A DNA stretch of 64,000 nucleotides from Alphaproteobacteria bacterium (GTDB taxonomy: Bacteria > Pseudomonadota > Alphaproteobacteria > CACIAM-22H2), in the NCBI GenBank assembly GCA_035506575.1, contig DATJPD010000100.1, positions 59,424 through 123,423 on the forward strand. Reading direction: 5' to 3'. A program made the translations under genes and the position numbers. A model generated the notes under the pieces. It was not told the origin of the DNA. It made no database searches and saw only the letters and a program-made list of their open reading frames with translations. This document shows, piece after piece, positions 34,486-50,715 of this stretch; the stretch's first letter is position 1, and the number at the start of each line of letters is the position of its first letter.

Positions 34486-35196
34486 TTGCCGGCCATGACA
34501 GGCTCCGACGCCGCCCATATCCTGGTCGTCGACGACGATTCACGGCTGCGGGAGCTGCTGCGCAAATTCCTCAGCGAGCGCGGGTTCCGCGTCACGACGG
34601 CGGCGAATGCCGCCGATGCCGAGGCGAAGCTGGGCTCTCTCGAATTCGACCTGATGATCCTGGACGTGATGATGCCGGGCGAAGACGGCGTTGCGCTGAC
34701 GCGGCGGCTGCGCCAGAGCCGCGTGCTGCCCATCCTCCTGCTGACCGCCCGCGCCGAAGCGCAGGACCGCATCGCGGGCCTCGCCAGCGGCGCCGACGAT
34801 TACCTGCCCAAGCCCTTCGAGCCCGACGAGCTCCTGCTGCGGGTGAAGGCGATCCTGAGACGCGCCCCGCCGCCGTCGGCGGCGCCGGCCGAGATCCGCT
34901 TCGGGCCGTTCCGCTTCGACCTCGGCCGCGAGGAGCTGCTGCAGGCAACCGACGGCAGCGCCGAGCAGCCCGTCCGGCTGACGGCGGCCGAGGCGTCGCT
35001 GCTGAAGGTGCTGGCCGCGAGCCCGGATGCGCCGGTGTCGCGCCAGGAGCTGTTGCAACACTCGCGCATTTCCGGCAATGAGCGCACGGTCGACGTCCAG
35101 GTGACACGGTTGCGGCGTAAGATCGAAGCCGATCCGCGCCTGCCGCGCTACTTGCAGACGGTGCGGGGCGCCGGCTACGTGCTGCGGACAGGCTGA
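34486..35196 (+). CDS. OmpR-family response regulator
   Basis: REC domain (LVVDDD...D...LLTAR) plus C-terminal winged-helix trans_reg_C (RLTAAEASLLKVL...GAGYVL). Confidence 0.9.
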   Translation: MPAMTGSDAAHILVVDDDSRLRELLRKFLSERGFRVTTAANAADAEAKLGSLEFDLMILDVMMPGEDGVALTRRLRQSRVLPILLLTARAEAQDRIAGLASGADDYLPKPFEPDELLLRVKAILRRAPPPSAAPAEIRFGPFRFDLGREELLQATDGSAEQPVRLTAAEASLLKVLAASPDAPVSRQELLQHSRISGNERTVDVQVTRLRRKIEADPRLPRYLQTVRGAGYVLRTG

Positions 35197-35202
35197 GGCT
35201 TC

Positions 35203-36519
35203 ATGGCTTTCTCGCTCAAGAACTACCTGCCGCACTCGCTGTTCGGGCGCGCGATCCTGATCCTGGTGATGCCGCTCATCATCGTCCAGGGGATCGCCGC
35301 CTTCGTCTTCTACGACCGCGTGTGGGACGTGGTGACGCGGCGCCTCACCACGGCGGTCGCGGGCGAGATCGGCATGGTGGTGCAGCTCCTCGGCCGCTAT
35401 CCCGACCCGGCGACGCGCAACTGGATCTTCGAGACCGTCGCCAACGAAAACGAGCTGCGCTTCAACCTTCGGCCCAACGCCATCCTCAGCAACGACGGAC
35501 CGGTACTCGGCAACGGCATCCTCGAGCAGCGCCTGGTGAACGCGATGAACGAGCGCGTGCGCCGGCCCTTCCGCCTCAACGTGTGGGGCGATCCCGCCGA
35601 CGTGCTCATCGACGTGCAGCTGCCCGAGGGCGTGCTCTACGTGCGCACGCCGCGCGGCCGGCTGTTCACCACCACCTCCTACGTGTTCATCCTGTGGATG
35701 GTGGGCTCGTCGCTGATCATGTTCGCGATCGCGTCCGTCTTCATGCGCAACCAGGTACGGCCGATCCAGCAGCTCGCGACCGCGGCCGAGGAGTTCGGCA
35801 AGGGCCGCGACACGCCGGAGTTCAAGCCCTACGGGGCGGCCGAGGTGCGGCGGGCGGCCGCGGCGTTCGTGATCATGCGCGAGCGCATCCGGCGGTTCGT
35901 CGCGCAACGGACCGAAATGCTGGCCGGCGTCAGCCACGATCTCAGGACGCCGCTCACCCGCATGAAGCTCGAGCTCGCGATGCTCGGCGATTCCCCCTCG
36001 GTCGCCGGGCTCAAGACCGACGTTGGCGACATGGAGCGGATGGTCGAAAGCTACCTCGCCTTCGTGCGCGGCGAGGGCGAGGAGCAGACGGAATCGACCG
36101 ACCTTTCCAAGCTGCTCGAGGACATCGCCGCCAACGCGCGGCGCGACGGGAATTCCGTGTCGCTCACGACGGTGGGCGATCTCGTCCTGCCGCTGCGGCC
36201 GCAGGCGATCAAGCGCAGCCTGACCAACCTCGTCGCCAACGCGACGCGGCACGCGGCCCAGGTGTCGATCGCGGCCGAGCGCCACAACCGCGCGGTCGAG
36301 GTGGTGATCGACGATGACGGCCCCGGCATCCCCGAGCAGGCGCGCGAGGAGGTGTTCAAGCCGTTCTACCGGCTCGATCCCTCGCGCAACCCCGACACCG
36401 GCGGCGTCGGCCTGGGCCTCACCATCGCGCGCGACGTGGTGAGCAGCCACGGCGGCAATATCCAGCTCGACTCGTCGCCGATGGGCGGCCTGCGTGCCCG
36501 CATCCGGCTTCCGGTTTGA
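35203..36519 (+). CDS. EnvZ-like sensor histidine kinase (2 TM, HAMP, HisKA, HATPase_c)
   Basis: H-box VSHDLRTPLTRM and N/G1/G2 boxes; 438 aa. Confidence 0.88.
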   Translation: MAFSLKNYLPHSLFGRAILILVMPLIIVQGIAAFVFYDRVWDVVTRRLTTAVAGEIGMVVQLLGRYPDPATRNWIFETVANENELRFNLRPNAILSNDGPVLGNGILEQRLVNAMNERVRRPFRLNVWGDPADVLIDVQLPEGVLYVRTPRGRLFTTTSYVFILWMVGSSLIMFAIASVFMRNQVRPIQQLATAAEEFGKGRDTPEFKPYGAAEVRRAAAAFVIMRERIRRFVAQRTEMLAGVSHDLRTPLTRMKLELAMLGDSPSVAGLKTDVGDMERMVESYLAFVRGEGEEQTESTDLSKLLEDIAANARRDGNSVSLTTVGDLVLPLRPQAIKRSLTNLVANATRHAAQVSIAAERHNRAVEVVIDDDGPGIPEQAREEVFKPFYRLDPSRNPDTGGVGLGLTIARDVVSSHGGNIQLDSSPMGGLRARIRLPV

Positions 36520-37399: not shown

Positions 37400-37538
37400 A
37401 CCCTGTTGCTCCTGATGACGTCCCATTGCCCGGCACCCATGCCACCAGACGGCGCGCCTTGAGGCAAGCAGGCAGCCGGCGCGTCTTGCGCAAAATGTTC
37501 AGAAGTAAATCGACCGTCCGGCAGCCTGCCGGGCGCGC

Positions 37539-37970
37539 TCAGGCGATGACCGCGCCCGCCGGCGCGGCGTACTGCGCCTTGCCCTGGTATTCCCGCGCGA
37601 GGCTCAAAAGGCCGATGCGGATGTCGCGGTTGGCAGGTCTTCGCGCCAGCCAGGCGATGAGCTGGGCCTGGCTCAGGTAGAACTCGCGATCGAAGGCGAA
37701 CGGACGGACGGATGGCTGCACGTACCGGACCACGCCTTCGCCCCCCTCGTCATCGGGGGGCATGAACTGCAGGCCGGCCTGCTCGAACGCCTCGCGGAAC
37801 TGACGGCGGGTGGAGGCGCGGACCGTGTAGCCGCGTTCGAAGCGCACCACGGTCATCCGAATCGCGCCGGCGTGGCGCGCGAGGTCGCTCTGCGTCCACT
37901 CGAGCAGCGCCCGCGCCGCCCGGCACTGGGCCGCCGAAATCAATCCCGTGCGTGCCATCGCCCGCGTCAT
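37539..37970 (-). CDS. XRE-family HTH transcriptional regulator
   Basis: HTH_XRE: ISAAQCRAARALLEWTQSDLARHAGAIRMTVVRFERG; 143 aa. Confidence 0.7.
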   Translation of the reverse strand: MTRAMARTGLISAAQCRAARALLEWTQSDLARHAGAIRMTVVRFERGYTVRASTRRQFREAFEQAGLQFMPPDDEGGEGVVRYVQPSVRPFAFDREFYLSQAQLIAWLARRPANRDIRIGLLSLAREYQGKAQYAAPAGAVIA

Positions 37971-38051: not shown

Positions 38052-39719
38052 TCAGCCGTCGATGACGCTGCGCAGGCGGCCGGCCAGATCGGCGACCGCG
38101 TAGGGCTTCGGCAGGTAGGCCACGTCCGGCGCGGGGTCGGCGCCGGCGGCGACATCGCCCGCAAACCCTGATGTGACCAGGACCTTCAGGCCGGGACGCA
38201 GCTCACGGGCCAGCCGGACCAGCTCGATCCCGCTGATCCCCTCCGGCATGACCACATCGGTGAACAGCACGTCGATCGCCTCGGGACCGCGCAGGATGGT
38301 CAGGGCGAGCGGGCCGTTCGCGGCGTGGAGAACGCGATACCCAAGCTCACCGATGACCTGGATCGCGGAATCGCGGACCAGGTCGTTGTCCTCGACGACC
38401 AGGATCGTCTCGCTCCCGCCGCTGGCCTCGCCCGCGGTCGCCTGACCTGCGGCGGCAGAGGGAGACTCGTGGGTCCGCGCGAGGTACAGGTGGACGCGCG
38501 TCCCCGTGCCGGGGGCGGTGTCGATCGCGACCGCGCCCTGCGCCTGCTTGACGAAGCCGTAGACCTGGCTGAGGCCGAGACCGCTACCCTTGCCGACATC
38601 CTTCGTGGTGAAGAACGGCTCGACGGCCCGCGCGACGATCTCGGGGGCCATGCCCGCCCCCGTATCCGCAACCGTGATGCACACGTACTGCCCCGGTTCC
38701 AGACCGGCCGGGTGCTGCACGCCCGCCGCGGCGGCCGAACCGATGTCGGCGTTGGATGTCCTGATCTCGATCGTGCCTCCCTCGGGCATCGCATCGCGCG
38801 CGTTGACCACCAGGTTGAGGACCGCGGCTTCGAGCTGGCCGGCATCGAGCCAACACGGCCACACGCCGGCGCCGAGCCGGAGCTGCAGTGCCGCGCGCTC
38901 TCCGGCGGCACGACGCAGCAGCGGCTCGAAGCGGTCTATCGCCGCGTTCACCTCCACGGCTTCGAACCGCAGGGGATCGCGGCGCCCGAACGCCAGCATC
39001 TGGTTCGTGAGGTGGCTGCATTCCTGCGTCGCGTTCAGCGCCAGGGTCACGGCCTTCAACAGCTTGTCGCGGCTGCCCGCATCCCATTTGAGGATGCCCC
39101 GCTCCAGTCGTTCGACGGCGCCGACGATGACCGTCAGCAGATTGTTGAAGTCGTGGGCGATGCCGCCGGTGAGGCGCCCCAGCGCGTCGAGCTTCTGGGC
39201 GTGACGCAGCGCCTCCTCGGTCTCGGCGCGCTGGCGCATTTCCTCGACCAGACGTTGGCCCACGTCCGCGATCTCTTGCGTCCGTTCGGCCACCCTCTGC
39301 TCCAGAATCTCGTTCTGCCGGCGCAGATCGAGCTCGGCACGCCGAAGCCGGAACATGGCACGTACGGTGGCGACGAGCTCCTCCGGCTCCATCGGCTCGA
39401 CAAGATACGAATCGGCACCGCCCTCCAGCGCCACGGCGCGATCGTCGGGGCCGGTGAACGCCGCCGATGTCTGCAGCACGAGCACGCTCGGATCGTCCGC
39501 CTTGAGCTGCCGGCAGACTTCGATGCCGCCGATGTCGGGCAGCTTCACATCCAGCAGCACGAGGCCTGGCGTGTCCGCCCGTACGCTGTCAAGCGCTTGG
39601 CCGCCGCGCTCCGCCTCGGCCACCTGGTAGCCGGCGCGCTCGAGCACCCGGCGCTTGAAGTAACGCTGGCCATCGTCGTCGTCGACGACCAGGACGGTTT
39701 CGCGACCGGTGGTGTTCAT
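38052..39719 (-). CDS. Hybrid sensor histidine kinase/response regulator (REC-HisKA-HATPase_c-REC)
   Basis: N-terminal REC (VLVVDDDDGQ), H-box GGIAHDFNNLL, ATPase G-boxes, C-terminal REC (ILVVEDNDLV). Start overlaps the upstream stop by 4 nt. Confidence 0.88.
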   Translation of the reverse strand: MNTTGRETVLVVDDDDGQRYFKRRVLERAGYQVAEAERGGQALDSVRADTPGLVLLDVKLPDIGGIEVCRQLKADDPSVLVLQTSAAFTGPDDRAVALEGGADSYLVEPMEPEELVATVRAMFRLRRAELDLRRQNEILEQRVAERTQEIADVGQRLVEEMRQRAETEEALRHAQKLDALGRLTGGIAHDFNNLLTVIVGAVERLERGILKWDAGSRDKLLKAVTLALNATQECSHLTNQMLAFGRRDPLRFEAVEVNAAIDRFEPLLRRAAGERAALQLRLGAGVWPCWLDAGQLEAAVLNLVVNARDAMPEGGTIEIRTSNADIGSAAAAGVQHPAGLEPGQYVCITVADTGAGMAPEIVARAVEPFFTTKDVGKGSGLGLSQVYGFVKQAQGAVAIDTAPGTGTRVHLYLARTHESPSAAAGQATAGEASGGSETILVVEDNDLVRDSAIQVIGELGYRVLHAANGPLALTILRGPEAIDVLFTDVVMPEGISGIELVRLARELRPGLKVLVTSGFAGDVAAGADPAPDVAYLPKPYAVADLAGRLRSVIDG

Positions 39720-41845
39720 GGCGCCGGCGGCGGGTGCGGCTGCAGCGCCTCGCGGATGGCCCCTACCAGCCGGTCCGCCGTCAGGTCGAACTTCGACAAG
39801 ATGCCGGATGCGTGCGCGACCCGTTCCTTCTGCGCCTCGTCGAGTACCAGCGAGGTCAGGATGATGGCCGGCGGCGCTCCCGCCCCTTCCCCGTTGTGCA
39901 GGCGGTCGAGGAACTCGAAGCCGTCGACCATGTCCATGTTCAGGTCGAGGAGGATGACGTCGGGTGGGTCCGCCTTCGCCTGCTCGAGCCCGTCGATCGC
40001 GTTGGCGGCCTCGCGAAGCTCGTAGGCGCCGCGCGGCAGCAGCTGGCGGACCACGTAGCGCGAGACCTCCTCGTCGTCGACCAGCAGCACCTTGGTCATG
40101 CCACGGGCGCCGGTCATCTCATCGAGCCACCGCACGAGGCCCGCCGGGTCGACTGGCTTGACCATGAATTCGTCGGCGCCGAAGCTGCGCGCCTTCTGCT
40201 CATCGGCGGTACTCGAGACGAGGACCGCCGGAACGTCCTGCGTCCGCTCATCGTGCTTCGCGTCGATCAAGAAGCGCCAGCATTCCTCGCCCTGGAGCAC
40301 GATATCGAGGACGAAGGCGGCCGGCGTGATCCGCTCCAACGCGCGTTTTGCCTCGGCGACGCTGCGGACGGAAATCGGCTGATAACGCGAGTACGCCAGC
40401 GAGCGCTCGAGGCTGAACGCGTCGGCGGGATCGTCTTCGAGGATCAGCACCGGCAACCGGCCCGGCTCGACCGTCCACGAGCCCTCGTCCGGCGCGCCGG
40501 CCAGCTCGCAGTAACGGCGCGGAATCCTGACCCAGAACAGCGAGCCCTGGCCCACGACGCTCTCGACCCCGGCCTCGCCGCCCAAAAGCTCGGCGAGGCG
40601 CTTGGACAGCGGCAGGCCGAGCCCCGTGCCCTTCACCCGTCCCTGGAGCCGGTTCGCGACCTGCGTGAATTCCTGCCAGATCCGGTCGAGGTCGGCCGCG
40701 GCGATCCCGACGCCCGTGTCGCGGACGTTCCAGGTCACCGTGTCGGTCTCGCGGTCGTAGACTGCCCACACGCGGACCTCGCCGCGCTCGGTGAACTTGA
40801 TCGCGTTGGAGATGAAGTTGCGCAGGATCTGCGAGACCTTGCCCTCGTCGGTGAAGAGGGTCGGGATATCGTCGGGGTCGTCGAACACGAGGTTGAGGGC
40901 GTTGCCGACCAGGAGCGGACGCAGCATGCCGCGCAAGGTGCTGAACAGCTCGCCGGCCTCGAATTCCTTCGACGTCACGACGACCTTGCCCGCCTCGACG
41001 CGCGCGATGTCGAGGAGGTTGTCGACCAGCTCCGCCAGGCTCTCCGCCGCCTTGCGCACGAACAGCACCTGCTTTTCCTGCTCGGGCGTCAGCTCCCCGT
41101 CGGTGCGGCCGAGCAGGAGACGGGACAGCGACAGGATCGAGTTCAACGGCGTGCGGAACTCGTGGCTCATGTTCGAGAGAAACCGCGACTTGAGCTGGTC
41201 GGCGCGGCGCAGATGGTCGGCGCGCTCCTCGAGCTCGGCGTAGAGGGCCACGACCCCGCGGTTCGTGTCCTGCAGCTCGTCGTTCAGCTGCGCGAGCTCC
41301 TGCTGACGCGCCTGAAGCTCCTGCAGCTGCAGCATCATCTCGCGGTTCTGGTTGCGGATCTCGGCCACGGGGTCGCCGCTCTCCGCCGTCGCCAGCGCCT
41401 GCATGATCGGCTTCAGCTGGTCCTTGTAGATCGCGGGCGCCCGCTTCGGCAGGCATTTCACCATTCGCACCGTCGTGCCCTGGCCGCGGTGGCTCTGCAG
41501 CTCGAACTCGTCCATCAGCCGCCGGGCGCCAAGGATTCCGACGCCCATGCCGGTCGTCGAGCGGTGGCGCCCGGACAGGACCGCTTCCGGGTCGGCCATG
41601 CCCGGGCCGGAATCCTGGACCACGATTTCGAGGCACTGCGGATCCCGGCCCGTGATCTTGTATTCGATGCGGCCGCCGCCGCCGTAATCGAGCGCGTTGC
41701 GCACGATCTCCGACACGGCGGTCGTGATACGCGTCTGATCCTGCGCATCGAACCCCAGAAGTGCCGCGATCTGGCGCGTGCGCTGGCGGGCGGCGATGAT
41801 GTCCGTCTCGCGCTCGATGGCCACGGTGAGGAGCCGTGCGTCCAC
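39716..41845 (-). CDS. RsbT-like GHKL domain::HisKA::HATPase_c::REC::REC hybrid kinase
   Basis: N-terminal 130 aa align with B. subtilis RsbT (DIIAARQ..TRITTAVSEIVRNAL..GQGTTVRMVKCL). Then H-box SHEFRTPLNS, ATPase and two receivers. Confidence 0.85.
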   Translation of the reverse strand: MDARLLTVAIERETDIIAARQRTRQIAALLGFDAQDQTRITTAVSEIVRNALDYGGGGRIEYKITGRDPQCLEIVVQDSGPGMADPEAVLSGRHRSTTGMGVGILGARRLMDEFELQSHRGQGTTVRMVKCLPKRAPAIYKDQLKPIMQALATAESGDPVAEIRNQNREMMLQLQELQARQQELAQLNDELQDTNRGVVALYAELEERADHLRRADQLKSRFLSNMSHEFRTPLNSILSLSRLLLGRTDGELTPEQEKQVLFVRKAAESLAELVDNLLDIARVEAGKVVVTSKEFEAGELFSTLRGMLRPLLVGNALNLVFDDPDDIPTLFTDEGKVSQILRNFISNAIKFTERGEVRVWAVYDRETDTVTWNVRDTGVGIAAADLDRIWQEFTQVANRLQGRVKGTGLGLPLSKRLAELLGGEAGVESVVGQGSLFWVRIPRRYCELAGAPDEGSWTVEPGRLPVLILEDDPADAFSLERSLAYSRYQPISVRSVAEAKRALERITPAAFVLDIVLQGEECWRFLIDAKHDERTQDVPAVLVSSTADEQKARSFGADEFMVKPVDPAGLVRWLDEMTGARGMTKVLLVDDEEVSRYVVRQLLPRGAYELREAANAIDGLEQAKADPPDVILLDLNMDMVDGFEFLDRLHNGEGAGAPPAIILTSLVLDEAQKERVAHASGILSKFDLTADRLVGAIREALQPHPPPAP

Positions 41846-41848
41846 CGG

Positions 41849-42835
41849 TCAGACCCTCAGGGCTACGACGGTCGCGTCGTCGTTCTTGCGCCGGAAGTCG
41901 CGGAATAGGATTCCGGCGATCAGGCTGGGATGGCTCGCCGCGAGGCCCGGGTAGGCCGTGAAATCCCACTTCGCGGACAGCCCGTCCGAGTGCATGATGA
42001 CGACGGATCCGTCCGCCCAGGGGTAGCTGAACTCGCGGATGCGCAGGGCCACGTGTCCCACCGTGCCGTTGTGCGACACCATCCGCCGGACGCTGCCGGC
42101 GGGCGCCACGATCGCGCCCGCGATATTGCCCACGCCCGCGAACCGGACCACCCGCGCCTCCCCATTCACGCGGGCAATGGCGATGGCGGCCCCTCGCGTC
42201 GGGGCGAGCTCCCGGTGCATCCGGGCCAGGATCTCCGTGCAGTCCTCGTCGGCGCAATTCTCGAACGTCCGCAGCGCCGCCTGGGTGGCCGCGCCTGCCG
42301 CCGGACCATGACCGGAGCCGTCGGCGACCATCAGGGTCGCGCCTTTGGTCGACCTCGCGAACGCCCAGCCGTCGCCGCTGACGCGCTCTCCATGCAACGG
42401 CATGGCGATCGCGCCGAGAACGGGAGTGCCGTCGATCTTGGAATGACGGCCATTGCCGATGCGCGCGGCGATCGCGGTGCCGAGGTTGGGGCGAGTGAAC
42501 ACGTTGAGCTGATCAGCCTGGCGGCGGATCGCGCCGAGGCCATTGCCCGGGCTGCCGGCGGTCGACACCCCGTCTTCGAACGCGCGCCCGAGATCGGCGA
42601 TCCCTTCGCCCTTGTCCAGAGCGAGGAGCTCGATACCGCTGCCCGAGGCGTCGGCGTAGGTGCCGATGACGATCTCGCCGCGCGAAGCATGCTTGATGAG
42701 ATTGGTGGCAAGCTCGGTTGCGACCAGGGCGACCCGGCCGGTGCTCTTCTCGTCGAACCCGCGCGCCTCTGCCGCGTCCGCGGCGGCGCGGCGCGCCACC
42801 GAAACCTGGCTGGAATCCGCGACCTCGATGAGCAT
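41849..42835 (-). CDS. RsbT/RsbW-like ATPase domain fused to PP2C (SpoIIE-type) phosphatase
   Basis: N-terminal VATELATNLIKHA...NGLGAIRRQADQLN (HATPase_c_2-like). C-terminal PP2C with metal-binding Asp motifs MVADGSGHG and IMHSDGL. Confidence 0.8.
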   Translation of the reverse strand: MLIEVADSSQVSVARRAAADAAEARGFDEKSTGRVALVATELATNLIKHASRGEIVIGTYADASGSGIELLALDKGEGIADLGRAFEDGVSTAGSPGNGLGAIRRQADQLNVFTRPNLGTAIAARIGNGRHSKIDGTPVLGAIAMPLHGERVSGDGWAFARSTKGATLMVADGSGHGPAAGAATQAALRTFENCADEDCTEILARMHRELAPTRGAAIAIARVNGEARVVRFAGVGNIAGAIVAPAGSVRRMVSHNGTVGHVALRIREFSYPWADGSVVIMHSDGLSAKWDFTAYPGLAASHPSLIAGILFRDFRRKNDDATVVALRV

Positions 42836-42847
42836 GCCGGCGCCGCC

Positions 42848-43270
42848 TCACTTCCAGCGGATCAGGGTGACGGTGGTGCCTTCGCCGGGGGTCGACTTGA
42901 TGTCGAACTCGTTGGACAGGCGCTTGGAGCCGCTGAGGCCGAGGCCCAGGCCGCCTCTGGTGGTGTAGCCGTCCGTCATGGCCCGCGCGATATCGGGGAT
43001 TCCGGGCCCCTTGTCGGTAAAGACCAGCCTGAGCCCCACGCGCCCGCCCTGCCGTACGGTATCCATGTCCATCCTGCCGCCGCCGCCATGCAAGATCGTG
43101 TTGCGGCCGATCTCGCTCGCAGCCGTGACGATCTTCGTCTGATCGACGAGGCTGAACCCAAGGGCCACGGCTTGCGCCCGAACCTTCTGCCGGACCTTGA
43201 CCACGTCCTCGGACGTACTGACCGATATTGTGTCACTCGCCTCGACGATCAAGCGACCCCTCCTCGCCAT
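42848..43270 (-). CDS. rsbT: RsbT-type serine kinase (stressosome partner)
   Basis: Aligns along its length with B. subtilis RsbT (TAASEIGRNTILHGGGG...GPGI...GGLGLGLSGSKRL...PGEGTTVTL). Start uncertain (ATG 43270 overlaps rsbS; alternative TTG 43252). Confidence 0.85.
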   Translation of the reverse strand: MARRGRLIVEASDTISVSTSEDVVKVRQKVRAQAVALGFSLVDQTKIVTAASEIGRNTILHGGGGRMDMDTVRQGGRVGLRLVFTDKGPGIPDIARAMTDGYTTRGGLGLGLSGSKRLSNEFDIKSTPGEGTTVTLIRWK

Positions 43271-43622
43271 CGATCATCTGGCGAATCAGGGCGAGCCCCT
43301 TGTCGACGTTGAGCGCGGTCTTCACGCCGGTCAGGGACAGGCCGAGCTCGACCAGGGTGATGGCGACCGCCGGCCGCATGCCGACGACCACCGTGACCGC
43401 GTCGAGAATGCGCGACATCGCCGCGATGTTGTTCAACATGCGGCCGATGAAGGAGTCGACGATCTCAAGAGAGGAGATGTCGATCATCACGCCGCGGGCG
43501 CGGGTCTCCACGATCTTCGCTGTCAGGTCGTCCTGCAGCGCCAACGCCAGCCGGTCGTGCATGTCGACCTGGATGCTGACCAGGAGCGTGTCGCCGATCT
43601 TCAGGATCGGGATCTGGTCCAT
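43233..43622 (-). CDS. rsbS: RsbS-type STAS-domain protein (stressosome scaffold)
   Basis: IPILKIGDTLLVSIQ...VMIDISSLEIVDSFIG...AITLVELG, including the DSF phosphorylatable-Ser context; 129 aa. Confidence 0.88.
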   Translation of the reverse strand: MDQIPILKIGDTLLVSIQVDMHDRLALALQDDLTAKIVETRARGVMIDISSLEIVDSFIGRMLNNIAAMSRILDAVTVVVGMRPAVAITLVELGLSLTGVKTALNVDKGLALIRQMIDGEEGSLDRRGE

Positions 43623-43628
43623 GGCGGT

Positions 43629-44519
43629 TTAAGCCTCTTCCGCCGCTGCCGCGTCCTGCGGCTTTTTCTTTTCGCCGTTCGACTGCTCGCGGTCCCTGAC
43701 CGTCTTGCCGATCCGCCGCAAGGCCAGCGCGAAGGCATCCGCCATCGTGGCCTTGGTCATGACGTTGAGCTCGACGCCGAGATGCACGATGGTTTGCGCG
43801 ATCTGCGGCCTGATACCGCTGATGATGCAGTCGGCCCCCATCAGACGCGCAGCGGACACGGTCTTCAGCAGGTGCTGCGCCACGAGCGTGTCGACTGTCG
43901 GCACGCCGGTGATGTCGATGATCGCGGTCTCGGCGCCCGAGGTGACGATCTGCTGCAAAAGGCTCTCCATCACGACCTGGGTGCGGGCGCTGTCCAAGGT
44001 GCCGATCAGCGGCAGGGCCAGGATGCCGTCCCACAGCTTCACCACGGGGGTCGACAGCTCCAGCATCTCCTCCTGCTGGCGCGCGATCACCTCTTCGCGG
44101 TTCTTCTGGAACACCTCGGTCGTGTAGAGGCCGAGCTTGTCGAGCAGCAGGGTTGCCGTCCAAATCTCGCGCGCAAGCGTCGGCGCGTCCTTGATTTCGC
44201 GCCCGAGCAGGGAGAACAGCGGAGATTTCAGCGAGAACACGAACGTCGCGGTCTGCGCCGGCGTGGCGCCCTTGATCGCACGCTCGCGCGAGAGCTCTTC
44301 GAGGATTCCGCGCGCCGGGGCCCAGGCTGGGCCGCTGATGTCATCGAACTGCCCCGAGGCGATGCCTTGCCGCAGTGCCGTGAAGAACCGCGCGCCGACT
44401 TCGTTGAGATCGTCGCCGACCGCAATCGTGACCGCCGATATCTGCGCAGCCCAGTCCTTCATCACCTGGGTGCTGTATTTGTCCAGGATCTGCGGGATGA
44501 TGCTGTCGGTCTTGGTCAT
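43629..44519 (-). CDS. rsbR: RsbR-type stressosome sensor (N-terminal non-haem-globin-like domain + C-terminal STAS)
   Basis: C-terminal STAS aligns with RsbRA (IIDITGVPTVDTLVAQHLL...GADCIISGIRPQIAQT), conserving both phosphorylatable Thr positions; 296 aa. Confidence 0.85.
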   Translation of the reverse strand: MTKTDSIIPQILDKYSTQVMKDWAAQISAVTIAVGDDLNEVGARFFTALRQGIASGQFDDISGPAWAPARGILEELSRERAIKGATPAQTATFVFSLKSPLFSLLGREIKDAPTLAREIWTATLLLDKLGLYTTEVFQKNREEVIARQQEEMLELSTPVVKLWDGILALPLIGTLDSARTQVVMESLLQQIVTSGAETAIIDITGVPTVDTLVAQHLLKTVSAARLMGADCIISGIRPQIAQTIVHLGVELNVMTKATMADAFALALRRIGKTVRDREQSNGEKKKPQDAAAAEEA

Positions 44520-44754
44520 CTTTTTCCCTCATTTTCTTTTCCAAGCGCGAGCGGCCCGCCACGCGGGTCACTCTCGCATGGACGGTCACGGAGATTGCGT
44601 CAGGTAGATGACGCCCAAAGCGGTCTTTTTGAGTTATTCCGAGCTGCCGGCCGCGCGATCGGTTGTTTCGCGTACACGCCTGGATTATTTAACCAACACG
44701 ATATCGAAAACACGAATCGTTTTACTGATCCAGGCAGGACTTGGGGAGCGTGCC

Positions 44755-45129
44755 ATGGCGAACAACGGGCCGACATCTGAGAAAGGACGGATCCTGCTCG
44801 TCGATGACGAGGACGGGTTCCGCTACACGGCCGAGAAGGCGCTGCGCGAGGCCGGCTATGACGTGAGGATCGCCGGCGATTATCAGAAGGCGCTCGACAT
44901 CCTCGCCGGGCCCGAGCGTCTCGACCTGATGCTGACCGACATCGTGATGCCCAAGGGCATCAACGGCTTTGCCCTGGCGCGCATGGCACGCATGCGCCGG
45001 CTCGACCTGAAGTTGCTCTACGTCACGTCGTACGACGTGCCCGCAAACGAAGCGGTCGCCAAGATCCTGCGCAAGCCGATCACCGAGACCGAGCTGGTGC
45101 ACGAGGTCGAGCAGGCGCTGGCGGCTTAG
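44755..45129 (+). CDS. Single-domain response regulator (receiver only)
   Basis: 124 aa with ILLVDDEDG...DLMLTDIVMP; divergent from rsbR. Internal ATG of ORF 44608..45129. Confidence 0.75.
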   Translation: MANNGPTSEKGRILLVDDEDGFRYTAEKALREAGYDVRIAGDYQKALDILAGPERLDLMLTDIVMPKGINGFALARMARMRRLDLKLLYVTSYDVPANEAVAKILRKPITETELVHEVEQALAA

Positions 45130-45170: not shown

Positions 45171-47291
45171 TCAGGCCGATGCTTCGGCCGGCGCCGTCAC
45201 TGCACCGATATCGCTGCGCCGCAGCCGCTGTCGCGGCAAATGCACCGTCATCCGGGTGCCGACATCCGGCGTACTGACGATCTCGAGTCTTCCCCCGTGC
45301 AGCTCGACCAGACGCTTGGCCAGCGGCAGTCCCAGCCCGGTGCCCTGCTGGCCGCGGCTGAAGGTGAGATTCGCCTGCCCGAACGGTTGCACCGCGGTTT
45401 CGATTTGCCCCGGGGTCATGCCGATTCCGGTGTCATGAACCACAAGCGCCAGCTCGCCGGATTCCTCGACGCCTGCGCTCAGCGACACCCGCCCGCCCGC
45501 TGGCGTGAACTTGATGGCATTCGACAGGAGATTGGTCAGGATCTGGCGTATCCGCAGGGGATCCGCCCACAGGTCCGGAAGGCTGACCGGAACGTCGATG
45601 CTCAGGAACAGATTTTTCTTGCCGGCCTCGCCGCGCAGGATGTTTACGGTTGAGGCGACCAGATCAGCCACGATGCACGACTGCTCGCGGAGTTGAAGCT
45701 TGGCCGCATCGAGCTTCGACAAATCGAGAATGTCGTTCACGATCTCCAGCAGATGGCGGCCCGCGCCGTTGATGTCGGCGGCATACTCGCGATAGCGCGC
45801 GGTGCCGACAGGCCCCAGGACCTCGCCGCGGATGATCTCGGAAAACCCGATCACGGCATTGAGCGGCGTCCGCAGCTCGTGACTCATGTTCGCAAGGAAC
45901 GCCGATTTTGCCTGGCTCCCGGCCTCGGCGGCGGCCTTCGCCCGCTCCAAGGCGGCCTCGATCTGCTTGCGCGCGGTGATGTCGCGCGAGTTGATCACGA
46001 TGCCCCCGACACCCGGGACGTCGAACGCATTGCGGGCCGTCCACCCGATGTCGCGCCACGTGCCGTCCACGTGCCGTACCCGCGCGCACCCGCTCGCACG
46101 GCGCCCCGGCCCGGCGGCAACGCCGCGCAGCGCATCGGCGAGCCCGGCCTTGTCCTCGGGATGTATGCGCTCCGACAACGGACGCCCGACGACCTCCTCC
46201 GGAGGAACTCCGAGCACCTCGATAGAAGAAGGACTGCGATAGGTCACCATGCCCTGCGGGTCGACGACGGTGATCATGTCGTTGGACTGCTCGATGAGCG
46301 CGCGGAACCGGCGCTCGCTGGTCTTGACGGCCGCCTCCGCCGCCTCGCGCCGGGCCTCCTGCCCCACCAGATAGGCGGCGAAAGCGGCGATGATGGCGGC
46401 GCAGGCGAGAAAGATCGCGCCTAGAACGCGGAGATCGCGCTTCCACGGGGCGAGCACGTCATCGACGGCGCGCGAGACGTAGACGACCAAGCCGAGGCTT
46501 GGGATCGCCCGATAGGAGACGATGCGATCGATCCCATCGATGATCGTGCTGGTCCGGTACGTTCCGACGGGGGTCTGCGGCAGGTAATGCGTCAGAAGCG
46601 GACCTTTCGCCAGCGACGCTCCGATGGCACCGCCCTTTGGCTGCCGCATGAGGATCGGCCCGTCGATTCGAACGACGCCGACCACCGCATTCTCGCCGAC
46701 CTGAAGCGATCGGAAGAAGTCGTGGAATGTGTTCAACGGGAGCGTCGCCACTATGACGCCGGCAAAGCTGCCGTCCGCCGCCACGAGACGCCGGCTCGCC
46801 GGGATGAGCCACTCGCCGGATGCCCGGCCGACGATCGGCATGCCGATGAAAAGACCTGCTTGCGAGTTTTTCCGATGCGCGTCGAAATAATCGCGATCGC
46901 TTAGATCGACCCCTACCGGTCCGGTCGCGAAGGTGGAATAGGTCATCCGGCCGGTCGGATCGATCAATCCCAGACTTCTCACGTGATACGTGTCGATGGC
47001 CCGCGACGAAATCTCGCCACCGTCCGGCCCCGTGCCGCCAGCGCGCGGCGCCTCGGCCAGGCGCTCCCCCGTGGTCACGAGCGCATGGTCGACCGCGTCG
47101 AATACGGAACGCGTATGCTCGTCGAGCGCAAGCGCGAGCCGCGCGTTCAGATCGCTGCCGTTCGTCAGATAAGCCCGGTATTCGATCAGCAGATGCGCAC
47201 CGAAGCCCAGGGCGAGAGCGAAAATCGCGAGCGCTGCGAACGCGATCAAACCGGGGCGGCTGCGGATGGTGGCGGACGTCATGTGACCCAT
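45171..47291 (-). CDS. Sensor histidine kinase with periplasmic Cache-like domain, PAS, HisKA, HATPase_c
   Basis: TM, ~270-aa periplasmic domain, second TM, PAS (ITVVDPQGMVTYRSP), H-box SHELRTPLNAV, G-boxes. Start is MGHM 47291 (or 47282). Confidence 0.85.
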   Translation of the reverse strand: MGHMTSATIRSRPGLIAFAALAIFALALGFGAHLLIEYRAYLTNGSDLNARLALALDEHTRSVFDAVDHALVTTGERLAEAPRAGGTGPDGGEISSRAIDTYHVRSLGLIDPTGRMTYSTFATGPVGVDLSDRDYFDAHRKNSQAGLFIGMPIVGRASGEWLIPASRRLVAADGSFAGVIVATLPLNTFHDFFRSLQVGENAVVGVVRIDGPILMRQPKGGAIGASLAKGPLLTHYLPQTPVGTYRTSTIIDGIDRIVSYRAIPSLGLVVYVSRAVDDVLAPWKRDLRVLGAIFLACAAIIAAFAAYLVGQEARREAAEAAVKTSERRFRALIEQSNDMITVVDPQGMVTYRSPSSIEVLGVPPEEVVGRPLSERIHPEDKAGLADALRGVAAGPGRRASGCARVRHVDGTWRDIGWTARNAFDVPGVGGIVINSRDITARKQIEAALERAKAAAEAGSQAKSAFLANMSHELRTPLNAVIGFSEIIRGEVLGPVGTARYREYAADINGAGRHLLEIVNDILDLSKLDAAKLQLREQSCIVADLVASTVNILRGEAGKKNLFLSIDVPVSLPDLWADPLRIRQILTNLLSNAIKFTPAGGRVSLSAGVEESGELALVVHDTGIGMTPGQIETAVQPFGQANLTFSRGQQGTGLGLPLAKRLVELHGGRLEIVSTPDVGTRMTVHLPRQRLRRSDIGAVTAPAEASA

Positions 47292-47592
47292 CAATTCGCG
47301 TCCCCGAGATCGGATCAAAAAGCGCCTGTGCCGCAGTGGAACCCACGAGAGCCCGCAGACGGCGCGCCGCGCCGATGGGGCGCGGCGGCATCGCACGGAC
47401 CTCTGCGTGACAGGACGCTCGTTGGCGACTCTGCGGACGAGTAAGCCGCAGTCTTCGTGGTGTCGCCGATCCGTCCACTAACGGGACGTGAGCCAAACGC
47501 CGCTTATGCAGCAGACTCTAAATATATGGAGTGGTTGTTAATAGAACGTTGACAAAGGCTTAACGGCGCGATGCGGGCCCTGTGCGTGGAGA

Positions 47593-48942: not shown

Positions 48943-50715
48943 CTAGGCGGCCGATACGGTGCGGCCCGTTGCCGCCTGGTCGCCGTAGGCCTGGACCGGC
49001 ATCCCCTTGGGAAGGTAAATCGTGACCGTCGTGCCGCGCCCAACTTCGCTCTCGATCGACACGCCGCCGCCCGACTGGCGCGCGAACCCGTACACCATCG
49101 ACAGGCCCAGCCCGGTGCCCTTGCCGGCCGGCTTCGTGGTGAAGAACGGCTCCCACACGCGCTGCAAGGCCTCGGGAGGGATCCCGGCGCCATTGTCGGT
49201 GACCTTGACGGCCACGAACGGGCCGTCGAGTTCGCCCGCCGCACCATTCAATATGACATTCGAGGTCTCCACCGTGACCACGCCTTCGACATGCGTGATC
49301 GAATCGCGCGCGTTCACGACAAGGTTCAGGATCGCGAGGTCGAGCTGTCCGGCATCCGATTCCACCGGCCACAAATCCGGCGCGGTCACGATCTTCAGCG
49401 CCACCAGCGGCGCGCTCTGGTGCAGCAATTCGCGCAACGCCTCCAGCCGCGCGTTGGCGTCGAACACCTCGTATTGGAGCGGCTGGCGCCGTGCGAACGC
49501 CAGCAGCTTCTGGACCAGCGCCTGCCCTCGCTCGACCGTCCGTTCGCAGCCGTCCAGGGCCCGGCGCACGCGCTCGTCCGCCGTCCGCGACAGCGCCAGG
49601 CGCAGATTGCCGCCGAGCGCCTGCAGCAGATTGTTGAAGTCGTGCGCCACGCCGCCCGTCAGCTGTCCCAGGGCTTCGAGCTTGCGCGTCTCGACCAGGG
49701 CAGCCTCCGCGTGCTTACGCCGCCGCTCCTCCTCGATCAGGCTCGCGTAGGTCTCCTGCTGGCGGGCGACCGCGTCCGCTTCGCGGCGCATCCAAGAGAG
49801 CGCGATCAACGCGAGGCCGAGCAGTGCCACGGCGCTCACGCCGGCGAGCGCGCCCCAGCGCACCACGTACCGGAGCCACGCATTGCGGATGCTCGTGTCG
49901 GCCACGCTGATCGCGACGTAAGCCGGATAGCTCGCCAGGCGCTGGAACGCGACGATGCGCTGGCCTCCGGATGCCGGATCCGCATCGGTGAACAATCCCG
50001 ACGGCGACGGCGGGATGGGCTCCGCGCGTGCGGCCTGCCCCGGCGGGTATTGGGCCAGGATCTCCCCGCTGTCGTGGACGAGCGACACCGCGAACCCGTC
50101 GGGCATGAGGTCGCGGCCGTAGAATCTCTCGAAGTAATCGGAGATCGACACGCCCACCACCCCGTCGAACCCACCCGCGGCACTCTGCCGCCGCACGCTC
50201 ATATTGAAGATCGCGTGATGGCTGATCAGCCCGGTGACCGAGCCGCCGAGATACGTGCCAAGGCCGTCCCGGAGCTGCGCCTTGAAGTAGTCGCGCTGCG
50301 AGAAATCCACCGGCGGCGAGGGGAAGACCCGCGTCGTCAGCGCGCCGATGCCCTTCGCATCGACGACGAAGATGGCATCGACCTCCGGGACCTGCTTGTC
50401 GAGCCGGCTCAGGTCCTCCCACAACGGCCGTGACGTCCGGATCTCATCCCACGACAGGCCGGAGATCCGCTGGTTGGCCTGTTCGATCACCAGCTCGGCG
50501 GATTGCAGCGTCTTCTCGGCATGCTCGGCGAAGCCGGCGGCCTGGCGCTTGGCGGTTTCCTCCGCCTGCTCGTACAGCTGCGCATGACTTTGCCAGGCGC
50601 CGACAGCAAACAGCGCAACCGGGCCGAGAACGGCACCCGCGAGCAGAAACCCGAACGGCCAGAACCGGGAGCTGACCATCGGCCACATCCCTTTTGCGAT
50701 AAATGAGCGCGACAT
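48943..50715 (-). CDS. Sensor histidine kinase with periplasmic Cache-like domain
   Basis: Two TM flanking a ~250-aa periplasmic domain, H-box GGVAHDFNNLL, G1/G2 boxes; 590 aa. Confidence 0.85.
   Translation of the reverse strand: MSRSFIAKGMWPMVSSRFWPFGFLLAGAVLGPVALFAVGAWQSHAQLYEQAEETAKRQAAGFAEHAEKTLQSAELVIEQANQRISGLSWDEIRTSRPLWEDLSRLDKQVPEVDAIFVVDAKGIGALTTRVFPSPPVDFSQRDYFKAQLRDGLGTYLGGSVTGLISHHAIFNMSVRRQSAAGGFDGVVGVSISDYFERFYGRDLMPDGFAVSLVHDSGEILAQYPPGQAARAEPIPPSPSGLFTDADPASGGQRIVAFQRLASYPAYVAISVADTSIRNAWLRYVVRWGALAGVSAVALLGLALIALSWMRREADAVARQQETYASLIEEERRRKHAEAALVETRKLEALGQLTGGVAHDFNNLLQALGGNLRLALSRTADERVRRALDGCERTVERGQALVQKLLAFARRQPLQYEVFDANARLEALRELLHQSAPLVALKIVTAPDLWPVESDAGQLDLAILNLVVNARDSITHVEGVVTVETSNVILNGAAGELDGPFVAVKVTDNGAGIPPEALQRVWEPFFTTKPAGKGTGLGLSMVYGFARQSGGGVSIESEVGRGTTVTIYLPKGMPVQAYGDQAATGRTVSAA

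Follow-up and report, generated by a model that had tools for sequence, protein, structure and literature searches.

An RsbX-type phosphatase fused to an RsbT-like ATP-binding domain in a stressosome operon with histidine kinases

Genes of the operon and its flanks

The window, a 64,000-nucleotide stretch of contig DATJPD010000100.1 from an Alphaproteobacteria MAG, carries a tightly packed minus-strand operon in the order rsbR, rsbS, rsbT, a fused ATPase-phosphatase gene, a gene for a 709-aa hybrid histidine kinase, and a gene for a protein of REC-HisKA-HATPase_c-REC architecture. The fused gene occupies 41849..42835 (minus strand) and encodes 328 aa from an ATG start to a TGA stop. Its product, an RsbT-like GHKL domain followed by an RsbX-type PP2C domain, is deposited in GenBank as HTY67761.1 under the name "SpoIIE family protein phosphatase." The gene begins 12 nt from the rsbT stop and ends 3 nt before the GTG of its downstream neighbor, and GAGG-like sites closely precede the starts of both genes.

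The first gene, rsbR (43629..44519, minus), encodes an RsbRD_N sensor domain and a STAS domain in which both acceptor positions, in the motifs LDSAR and VDTLV, are kept. This STAS domain matches Vibrio RsbR with an E-value of 7e-32 and Listeria RsbR with an E-value of 2e-29. The product of rsbS (43233..43622, minus) is a single STAS domain that retains its phospho-acceptor Ser in the motif VDSF; sequence matches to the RsbS proteins of Listeria (6qcm, E 1.1e-32) and Bacillus (E 4e-30) identify it as a clear orthologue of both. A stand-alone GHKL serine kinase is encoded by rsbT (42848..43270, minus). The longest rsbT ORF spans 140 aa and overlaps rsbS by 38 nt, while close relatives have 134 aa and a 20-nt overlap; the true start probably lies near 43252.

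The hybrid histidine kinase (39716..41845, minus) contains an RsbT-like GHKL domain, a coiled-coil linker, HisKA and HATPase_c domains, and two REC domains. Its RsbT-like input domain comprises the first ~135 aa (41441..41845, minus), with a HATPase_c_2 match at aa 15-130 and intact N, G1, and G2 boxes, and is joined to HisKA by a long helical linker. Other stressosome-linked kinases have been reported to carry an RsbU_N input instead. The second hybrid kinase, the REC-HisKA-HATPase_c-REC protein, is encoded at 38052..39719 (minus), with a 4-nt overlap between its start and the preceding gene. Directly after it lies an ORF of 143 aa (37539..37970, minus) with no Pfam match, followed by a weak terminator-like site at 37526..37512. 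Three close relatives (L088, L089, and L090) have an unannotated ORF of 140-153 aa at this position, and the operon may end with the 143-aa ORF. Terminator-like sites in the operon showed no excess over shuffled sequences, and a scan of the operon for consensus sigma-70 promoters found none, although such a scan is uninformative at 68% G+C. The ~68% G+C also explains the long ORFs at 39734..41908 (plus), 40248..42257 (minus), and 41930..43312 (plus), which span 460-724 aa, overlap real genes in another frame or on the opposite strand, and were rejected as genes.

A single-domain response regulator is encoded divergently from rsbR at 44608..45129 (plus). Its longest ORF is 173 aa long, relatives have 122-124 aa, and its true start is probably M50 at 44755, which would leave a divergent intergenic region of ~235 bp before rsbR. 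Genes for a sigma factor, RsbV, or RsbW were not found within about 8 kb of the fused gene. Other signaling genes near the module encode two dCache-type sensor histidine kinases (45171..47396 and 48943..50715, both minus) and a pair consisting of an OmpR-type regulator and a HAMP kinase (34486..36519, plus). The first dCache kinase recurs in the close relative L088 and is absent from L089 and L090; since it is found in only one of the three, it is probably not a member of the module.

Two domains in one chain

Both halves of the fused protein are recognized by Pfam with scores far above chance: HATPase_c_2 at aa 6-122 (E 1.1e-12; 48.4 bits, cut-off 27.4) and SpoIIE at aa 166-328 (E 1.8e-13; 51.3 bits, cut-off 25). 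NCBIfam returns nothing more than weak, sub-threshold matches to anti-sigma kinase models. The chain divides into an N-terminal GHKL domain (aa 1-127; 42455..42835, minus), a variable linker (aa 128-140; 42416..42454, minus) with low pLDDT at residues 133-135, and a C-terminal minimal PP2C domain (aa 141-328; 41852..42415, minus). The peptides on which an earlier note, written from the sequence alone, had based its reading are all found in the protein: LVATELATNLIKHA at aa 37-50 and GNGLGAIRRQ at aa 97-106 in the N-terminal domain, and SGDGWAF (153-159), MVADGSGHG (169-177), and IMHSDGL (280-286) in the phosphatase.

That note had proposed an RsbT/RsbW-type ATPase at the N terminus, and Pfam, motifs, and predicted fold agree on a GHKL domain of ~127 aa at this position. 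By sequence, the isolated domain finds only a marginal histidine-kinase match in the PDB (E 0.45), and its fold was therefore settled by structure prediction and fold search. The predicted structure (pLDDT 92) is a Bergerat fold that most resembles SpoIIAB and RsbW, and the fold search ranked the anti-sigma factors SpoIIAB, RsbW, and UsfX highest. The earlier note had recommended inspection of the ATP-binding residues and had named a missing Bergerat fold as grounds for abandoning its proposal. The fold is present in the model, and the residues are all in place: E41, N45, and H49 in the N box, D74-G76-G78 in G1, G97-G99-G101 in G2, and, in addition, R105 and R15. The N, G1, and G2 boxes are thus intact, and the domain is a GHKL domain of the RsbT/RsbW/SpoIIAB type. 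Aligned via RsbT R27, R15 pairs with SpoIIAB R20, a partner-binding residue that makes contact with SpoIIAA and sigma-F; each of the three RsbT-like domains in the operon has this Arg. The domain is an ancient RsbT paralogue whose ATP-binding pocket is complete.

The C-terminal half had been described as a SpoIIE-type PP2C with intact metal-binding Asp residues, and these residues (D155, D172, D284, and D319/D320) are indeed kept in the protein and its homologues. Sequence comparison of this domain with the PDB returns only RsbX and MtX, which are also its best structural matches. It contains, at G236-N237, the Group II GN motif (PMC4524716), which is typical of RsbX-type PP2Cs. Together these features identify the domain as a minimal PP2C of the RsbX/MtX type that is catalytically intact, with a fold of ~190 aa.

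RsbX of Bacillus subtilis (PDB 3W40) and MtX of Moorella thermoacetica (PDB 3ZT9) are stressosome feedback phosphatases, both single-domain proteins of ~190-200 aa. The fused protein shares with RsbX the minimal PP2C fold, the Asp residues, the GN motif, and the rsbRST neighbors, but not the single-domain state, as it is extended at the N terminus by an RsbT-like ATP-binding domain of 127 aa and a linker of 13 aa. PP2C and RsbW-like kinase domains also occur in one chain in Rv1364c of Mycobacterium tuberculosis (PDB 3KE6) and in actinobacterial PP2C-HATPase_c_2 proteins. Those proteins, however, have the reversed order PAS-PP2C-kinase-STAS, an RsbU-like PP2C, and no stressosome context, and the superposition of Rv1364c on the fused protein covers the PP2C part only.

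Conservation, distribution, and synteny

Relatives of the protein number 4,251 in a word-indexed search, and an exhaustive search of 1.84 billion cluster representatives yielded 1,225 clusters (50% identity) at E≤1e-30. In a scan of one genome per species, a relative is present in 446 species from several phyla. Carriers among the Alphaproteobacteria include Stellaceae, Acetobacteraceae, Rhodospirillaceae, and Methylocystis; others belong to Gemmatimonas, Verrucomicrobiia, Marinimicrobia, Acidobacteriota, and Steroidobacteraceae. All but one of the 120 best homologues from the word-indexed search are 323-340 aa long, the sole exception being a fragment; 109 of the 120 have both domains in precomputed Pfam annotation, and nearly all of the best 150 representatives of 50%-identity clusters align to the query end to end. 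Retention of length and architecture in hundreds of independent sequences rules out a frameshift or mis-assembly as the origin of the fusion. Databases already name homologues "ATP-binding SpoIIE family protein phosphatase" and, in many JGI entries, "anti-sigma regulatory factor (Ser/Thr protein kinase)." The rarity implied by the earlier note is thus not borne out: the fusion is widespread, strongly conserved, and already named. A description of a GHKL::RsbX fusion was not found in the searchable full-text literature, although a mention in older comparative or review work is possible.

Conservation was assessed in 147 representatives of 50%-identity clusters, each 40-55% identical to the query. 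In this sample, E41, N45, D74, G78, and G99 are conserved in 100% of sequences and G76, G97, G101, and R105 in 98-99%; in the phosphatase, D155, D172, D284, and D319 are conserved in 100%, and the metal-binding Asp set overall in 99-100%. Among 61 close homologues, the invariant positions are E41, N45, K48, H49, D74, G78, G97, G99, G101, and R105 in the N-terminal domain and D155, D172, D284, D319, D320, and G236-N237 in the PP2C domain. Mean pairwise identity across the 147 representatives is 43.4% for the N-terminal domain, 42.9% for PP2C, and 11% for the linker, which usually spans 13-19 aa. In four close relatives, dN/dS is 0.07-0.17 for the N-terminal domain, 0.14-0.22 for PP2C, and 0.5-1.9 for the linker. 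The N-terminal domain is not decaying, and the constraint on it at least equals that on the phosphatase domain. The earlier note had offered, as an alternative, a degenerate ATPase acting as a docking domain. Conservation of the ATP-site residues at 98-100% disfavors this proposal and, taken together with the dN/dS of the domain, rules out degeneracy itself.

Gene order is nearly invariant. Among 80 loci, rsbT lies immediately upstream of the fused gene in 79, and rsbS and rsbR are each present in 77; where one of these genes is missing upstream, the fused gene stands at a contig end. A histidine kinase with an N-terminal RsbT-like domain follows downstream in all 80 loci, the second kinase comes next in 73, and the divergent REC gene is found in 59. 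Four homologues at 40-42% identity all keep rsbR-rsbS-rsbT upstream, and at least three have a downstream kinase that likewise opens with an RsbT-like domain.

Three proteins encoded in the operon have paralogous GHKL domains: RsbT, the fused protein at its N terminus, and the hybrid kinase in its first ~135 aa. In the 80 loci these domains form three separate groups, with mean identities of 68% within the RsbT group, 52% within that of the fused protein, and 57% within that of the kinase, compared with 24-35% between any two groups; the N, G1, and G2 motifs are kept in each. Whereas RsbT, RsbW, and SpoIIAB are stand-alone proteins, the N-terminal domain of the fused protein constitutes its own orthologous group and is always joined to PP2C.

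Function and competing interpretations

The fused protein most likely sits at the RsbX position of an rsbR-rsbS-rsbT-rsbX stressosome whose output is a two-component phosphorelay and not a sigma factor. Outside the Bacillales, the usual unit is the four-gene rsbRSTX module followed by variable output genes (PMC9237108). On balance, the protein is probably an RsbX feedback phosphatase in which the RsbT-paralogous ATP-binding domain docks on the STAS domains of RsbR and RsbS and may also phosphorylate them. By analogy with RsbX, the PP2C domain would remove the phosphates that RsbT puts on the STAS domains of RsbS and RsbR, resetting the complex. Retention of the phospho-acceptors in both proteins indicates that these partners are intact, which counts in favor of a reset phosphatase. 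The feedback role of RsbX has been described for a single-domain protein (PMC9237108), so the role of the domain added here is conjecture.

The N-terminal domain might bind the STAS domains of the stressosome in a nucleotide-dependent manner and thereby tether the phosphatase to its multi-subunit substrate. RsbT and the RsbT-like input of the downstream histidine kinase could be competitors in such docking. Recruitment to the very subunit that is to be dephosphorylated would be awkward, because kinases of this family prefer unphosphorylated STAS domains and PP2C needs a phosphorylated one; a neighboring unphosphorylated subunit could serve as the anchor instead. If the domain also phosphorylates RsbR or RsbS, the protein would, like SypE, both write and erase phosphate marks.

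SypE of Vibrio fischeri, a working kinase-plus-PP2C protein that acts on the STAS protein SypA and whose kinase needs the N-box Asn, is the closest characterized precedent (PMC3610818). The SypE Asn corresponds to N45, and with its motifs intact the fused protein could, as the earlier note suggested, hold kinase and phosphatase activity toward STAS partners in one polypeptide. The two proteins differ in their control and context. In SypE a central REC domain switches between the two activities, whereas the fused protein has only a short, variable linker and no REC. SypE works on a single STAS protein at a biofilm locus, whereas the fused protein belongs to a stressosome operon in which RsbT already provides a separate kinase.

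The lack of such a switch leads to a possible, though less probable, interpretation, in which the N-terminal domain is a regulatory pseudo-kinase that binds a partner, and perhaps nucleotide, without phosphotransfer. The partner could be a STAS domain, RsbT, or the RsbT-like domain of the kinase, and binding would localize or gate the phosphatase; variants include a sensor of ATP/ADP and SpoIIAB-like dimerization. A constitutively active kinase coupled to an antagonistic phosphatase, with no REC or other switch between them, would burn ATP in a futile cycle, and kinase activity is already supplied by the RsbT of the same operon. In SpoIIAB-type proteins, binding of the STAS partner depends on nucleotide. 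Nucleotide-dependent partner binding would also account for the conserved ATP site, and ATP-site conservation is equally compatible with binding of this kind that involves no phosphotransfer. Control of bacterial PPM phosphatases by N-terminal partner or dimerization domains is, moreover, established (PMC12143880). Against this stands the preservation of the catalytic-type residues, which pure docking domains usually lose and which are kept here as well as in the RsbT of the operon (E41 and N45 at 100%, G1/G2 and R105 at 98-100%). SypE further shows that a fused kinase of the same type can be active (PMC3610818). The missing switch domain thus favors docking somewhat, and catalytic conservation of RsbT grade favors an active kinase.

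Two further proposals are disfavored. The earlier note placed it exactly where B. subtilis has RsbU, and it is indeed the fourth gene, directly after rsbT; on this reading it would be an output phosphatase activated by RsbT, and its RsbT-like domain, standing in place of RsbU_N, could conceivably pair with RsbT. This equivalence is very unlikely. RsbU is likewise a PP2C whose gene follows rsbT, but it binds RsbT through a four-helix RsbU_N domain, and its larger PP2C has RsbV as substrate. The fused protein shows none of these features; its PP2C is of the RsbX/MtX type by sequence and structure and carries the GN motif. The RsbU module includes RsbV, RsbW, and a sigma factor, none of which is encoded within the ~8 kb noted above, and histidine kinases stand in their place. 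The fourth position is, in any case, the ordinary one for rsbX in rsbRSTX modules outside the Bacillales, where outputs are encoded after rsbX (PMC9237108). More improbable still is an anti-sigma factor whose N-terminal domain sequesters a sigma factor, as the JGI name on many homologues would suggest and as the structural matches to SpoIIAB, RsbW, and UsfX might be taken to imply. That name is a generic COG-type label, and no sigma factor gene is present in the operon or its flanks or among the conserved neighbors in sampled loci with called genes. An ECF sigma gene in the close relative L089 stands apart from the module, unlinked and on the opposite strand, ~3.8 kb upstream.

If the RsbX-type feedback phosphatase favored here does contain an active kinase, RsbX would write and erase the same marks, which would change how stressosome feedback is modeled; if its added domain serves for nucleotide-dependent docking only, the reset of the complex would be tied to the ATP/ADP state of the cell. 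Stressosome signaling operates in many bacteria without SigB and RsbU, and for these the module offers a different, testable wiring, in which RsbT-like domains are fused to both the reset phosphatase and the output histidine kinase, suggesting a link between stressosome and two-component signaling. The family is large and strongly conserved, and cultured carriers exist among Methylocystis spp.

A more speculative and distinctly doubtful extension is that RsbT, the N-terminal domain of the fused protein, and that of the kinase all occupy the same STAS sites in the stressosome. Were this so, the stressosome would sequester its own reset phosphatase and histidine kinase and free both upon stress or phosphorylation. 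The arrangement would provide a route from stressosome to two-component system that needs neither RsbU_N nor a sigma factor, and it would account for the constant co-occurrence of the fused RsbX and a kinase with an RsbT-like input.

Known couplings of stressosomes to their outputs run through RsbU_N, carried by phosphatases, diguanylate cyclases, or histidine kinases (PMC9237108, PMC12143880); in many systems, that of Vibrio among them, a coupling has not been found. Most proteins encoded downstream of stressosome modules lack RsbU_N, and in the Vibrio stressosome an interaction between RsbT and the downstream kinase could not be shown (PMC9237108). A stressosome-linked histidine kinase with an RsbT-like input was not found described in the searchable full-text literature, though older work may mention one. 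The output of this module type varies: in locus L084 (1625..3644), which encodes a homologue of 40% identity, the RsbT-like input belongs to a non-hybrid histidine kinase, followed by a REC-GerE (LuxR-type) DNA-binding regulator.
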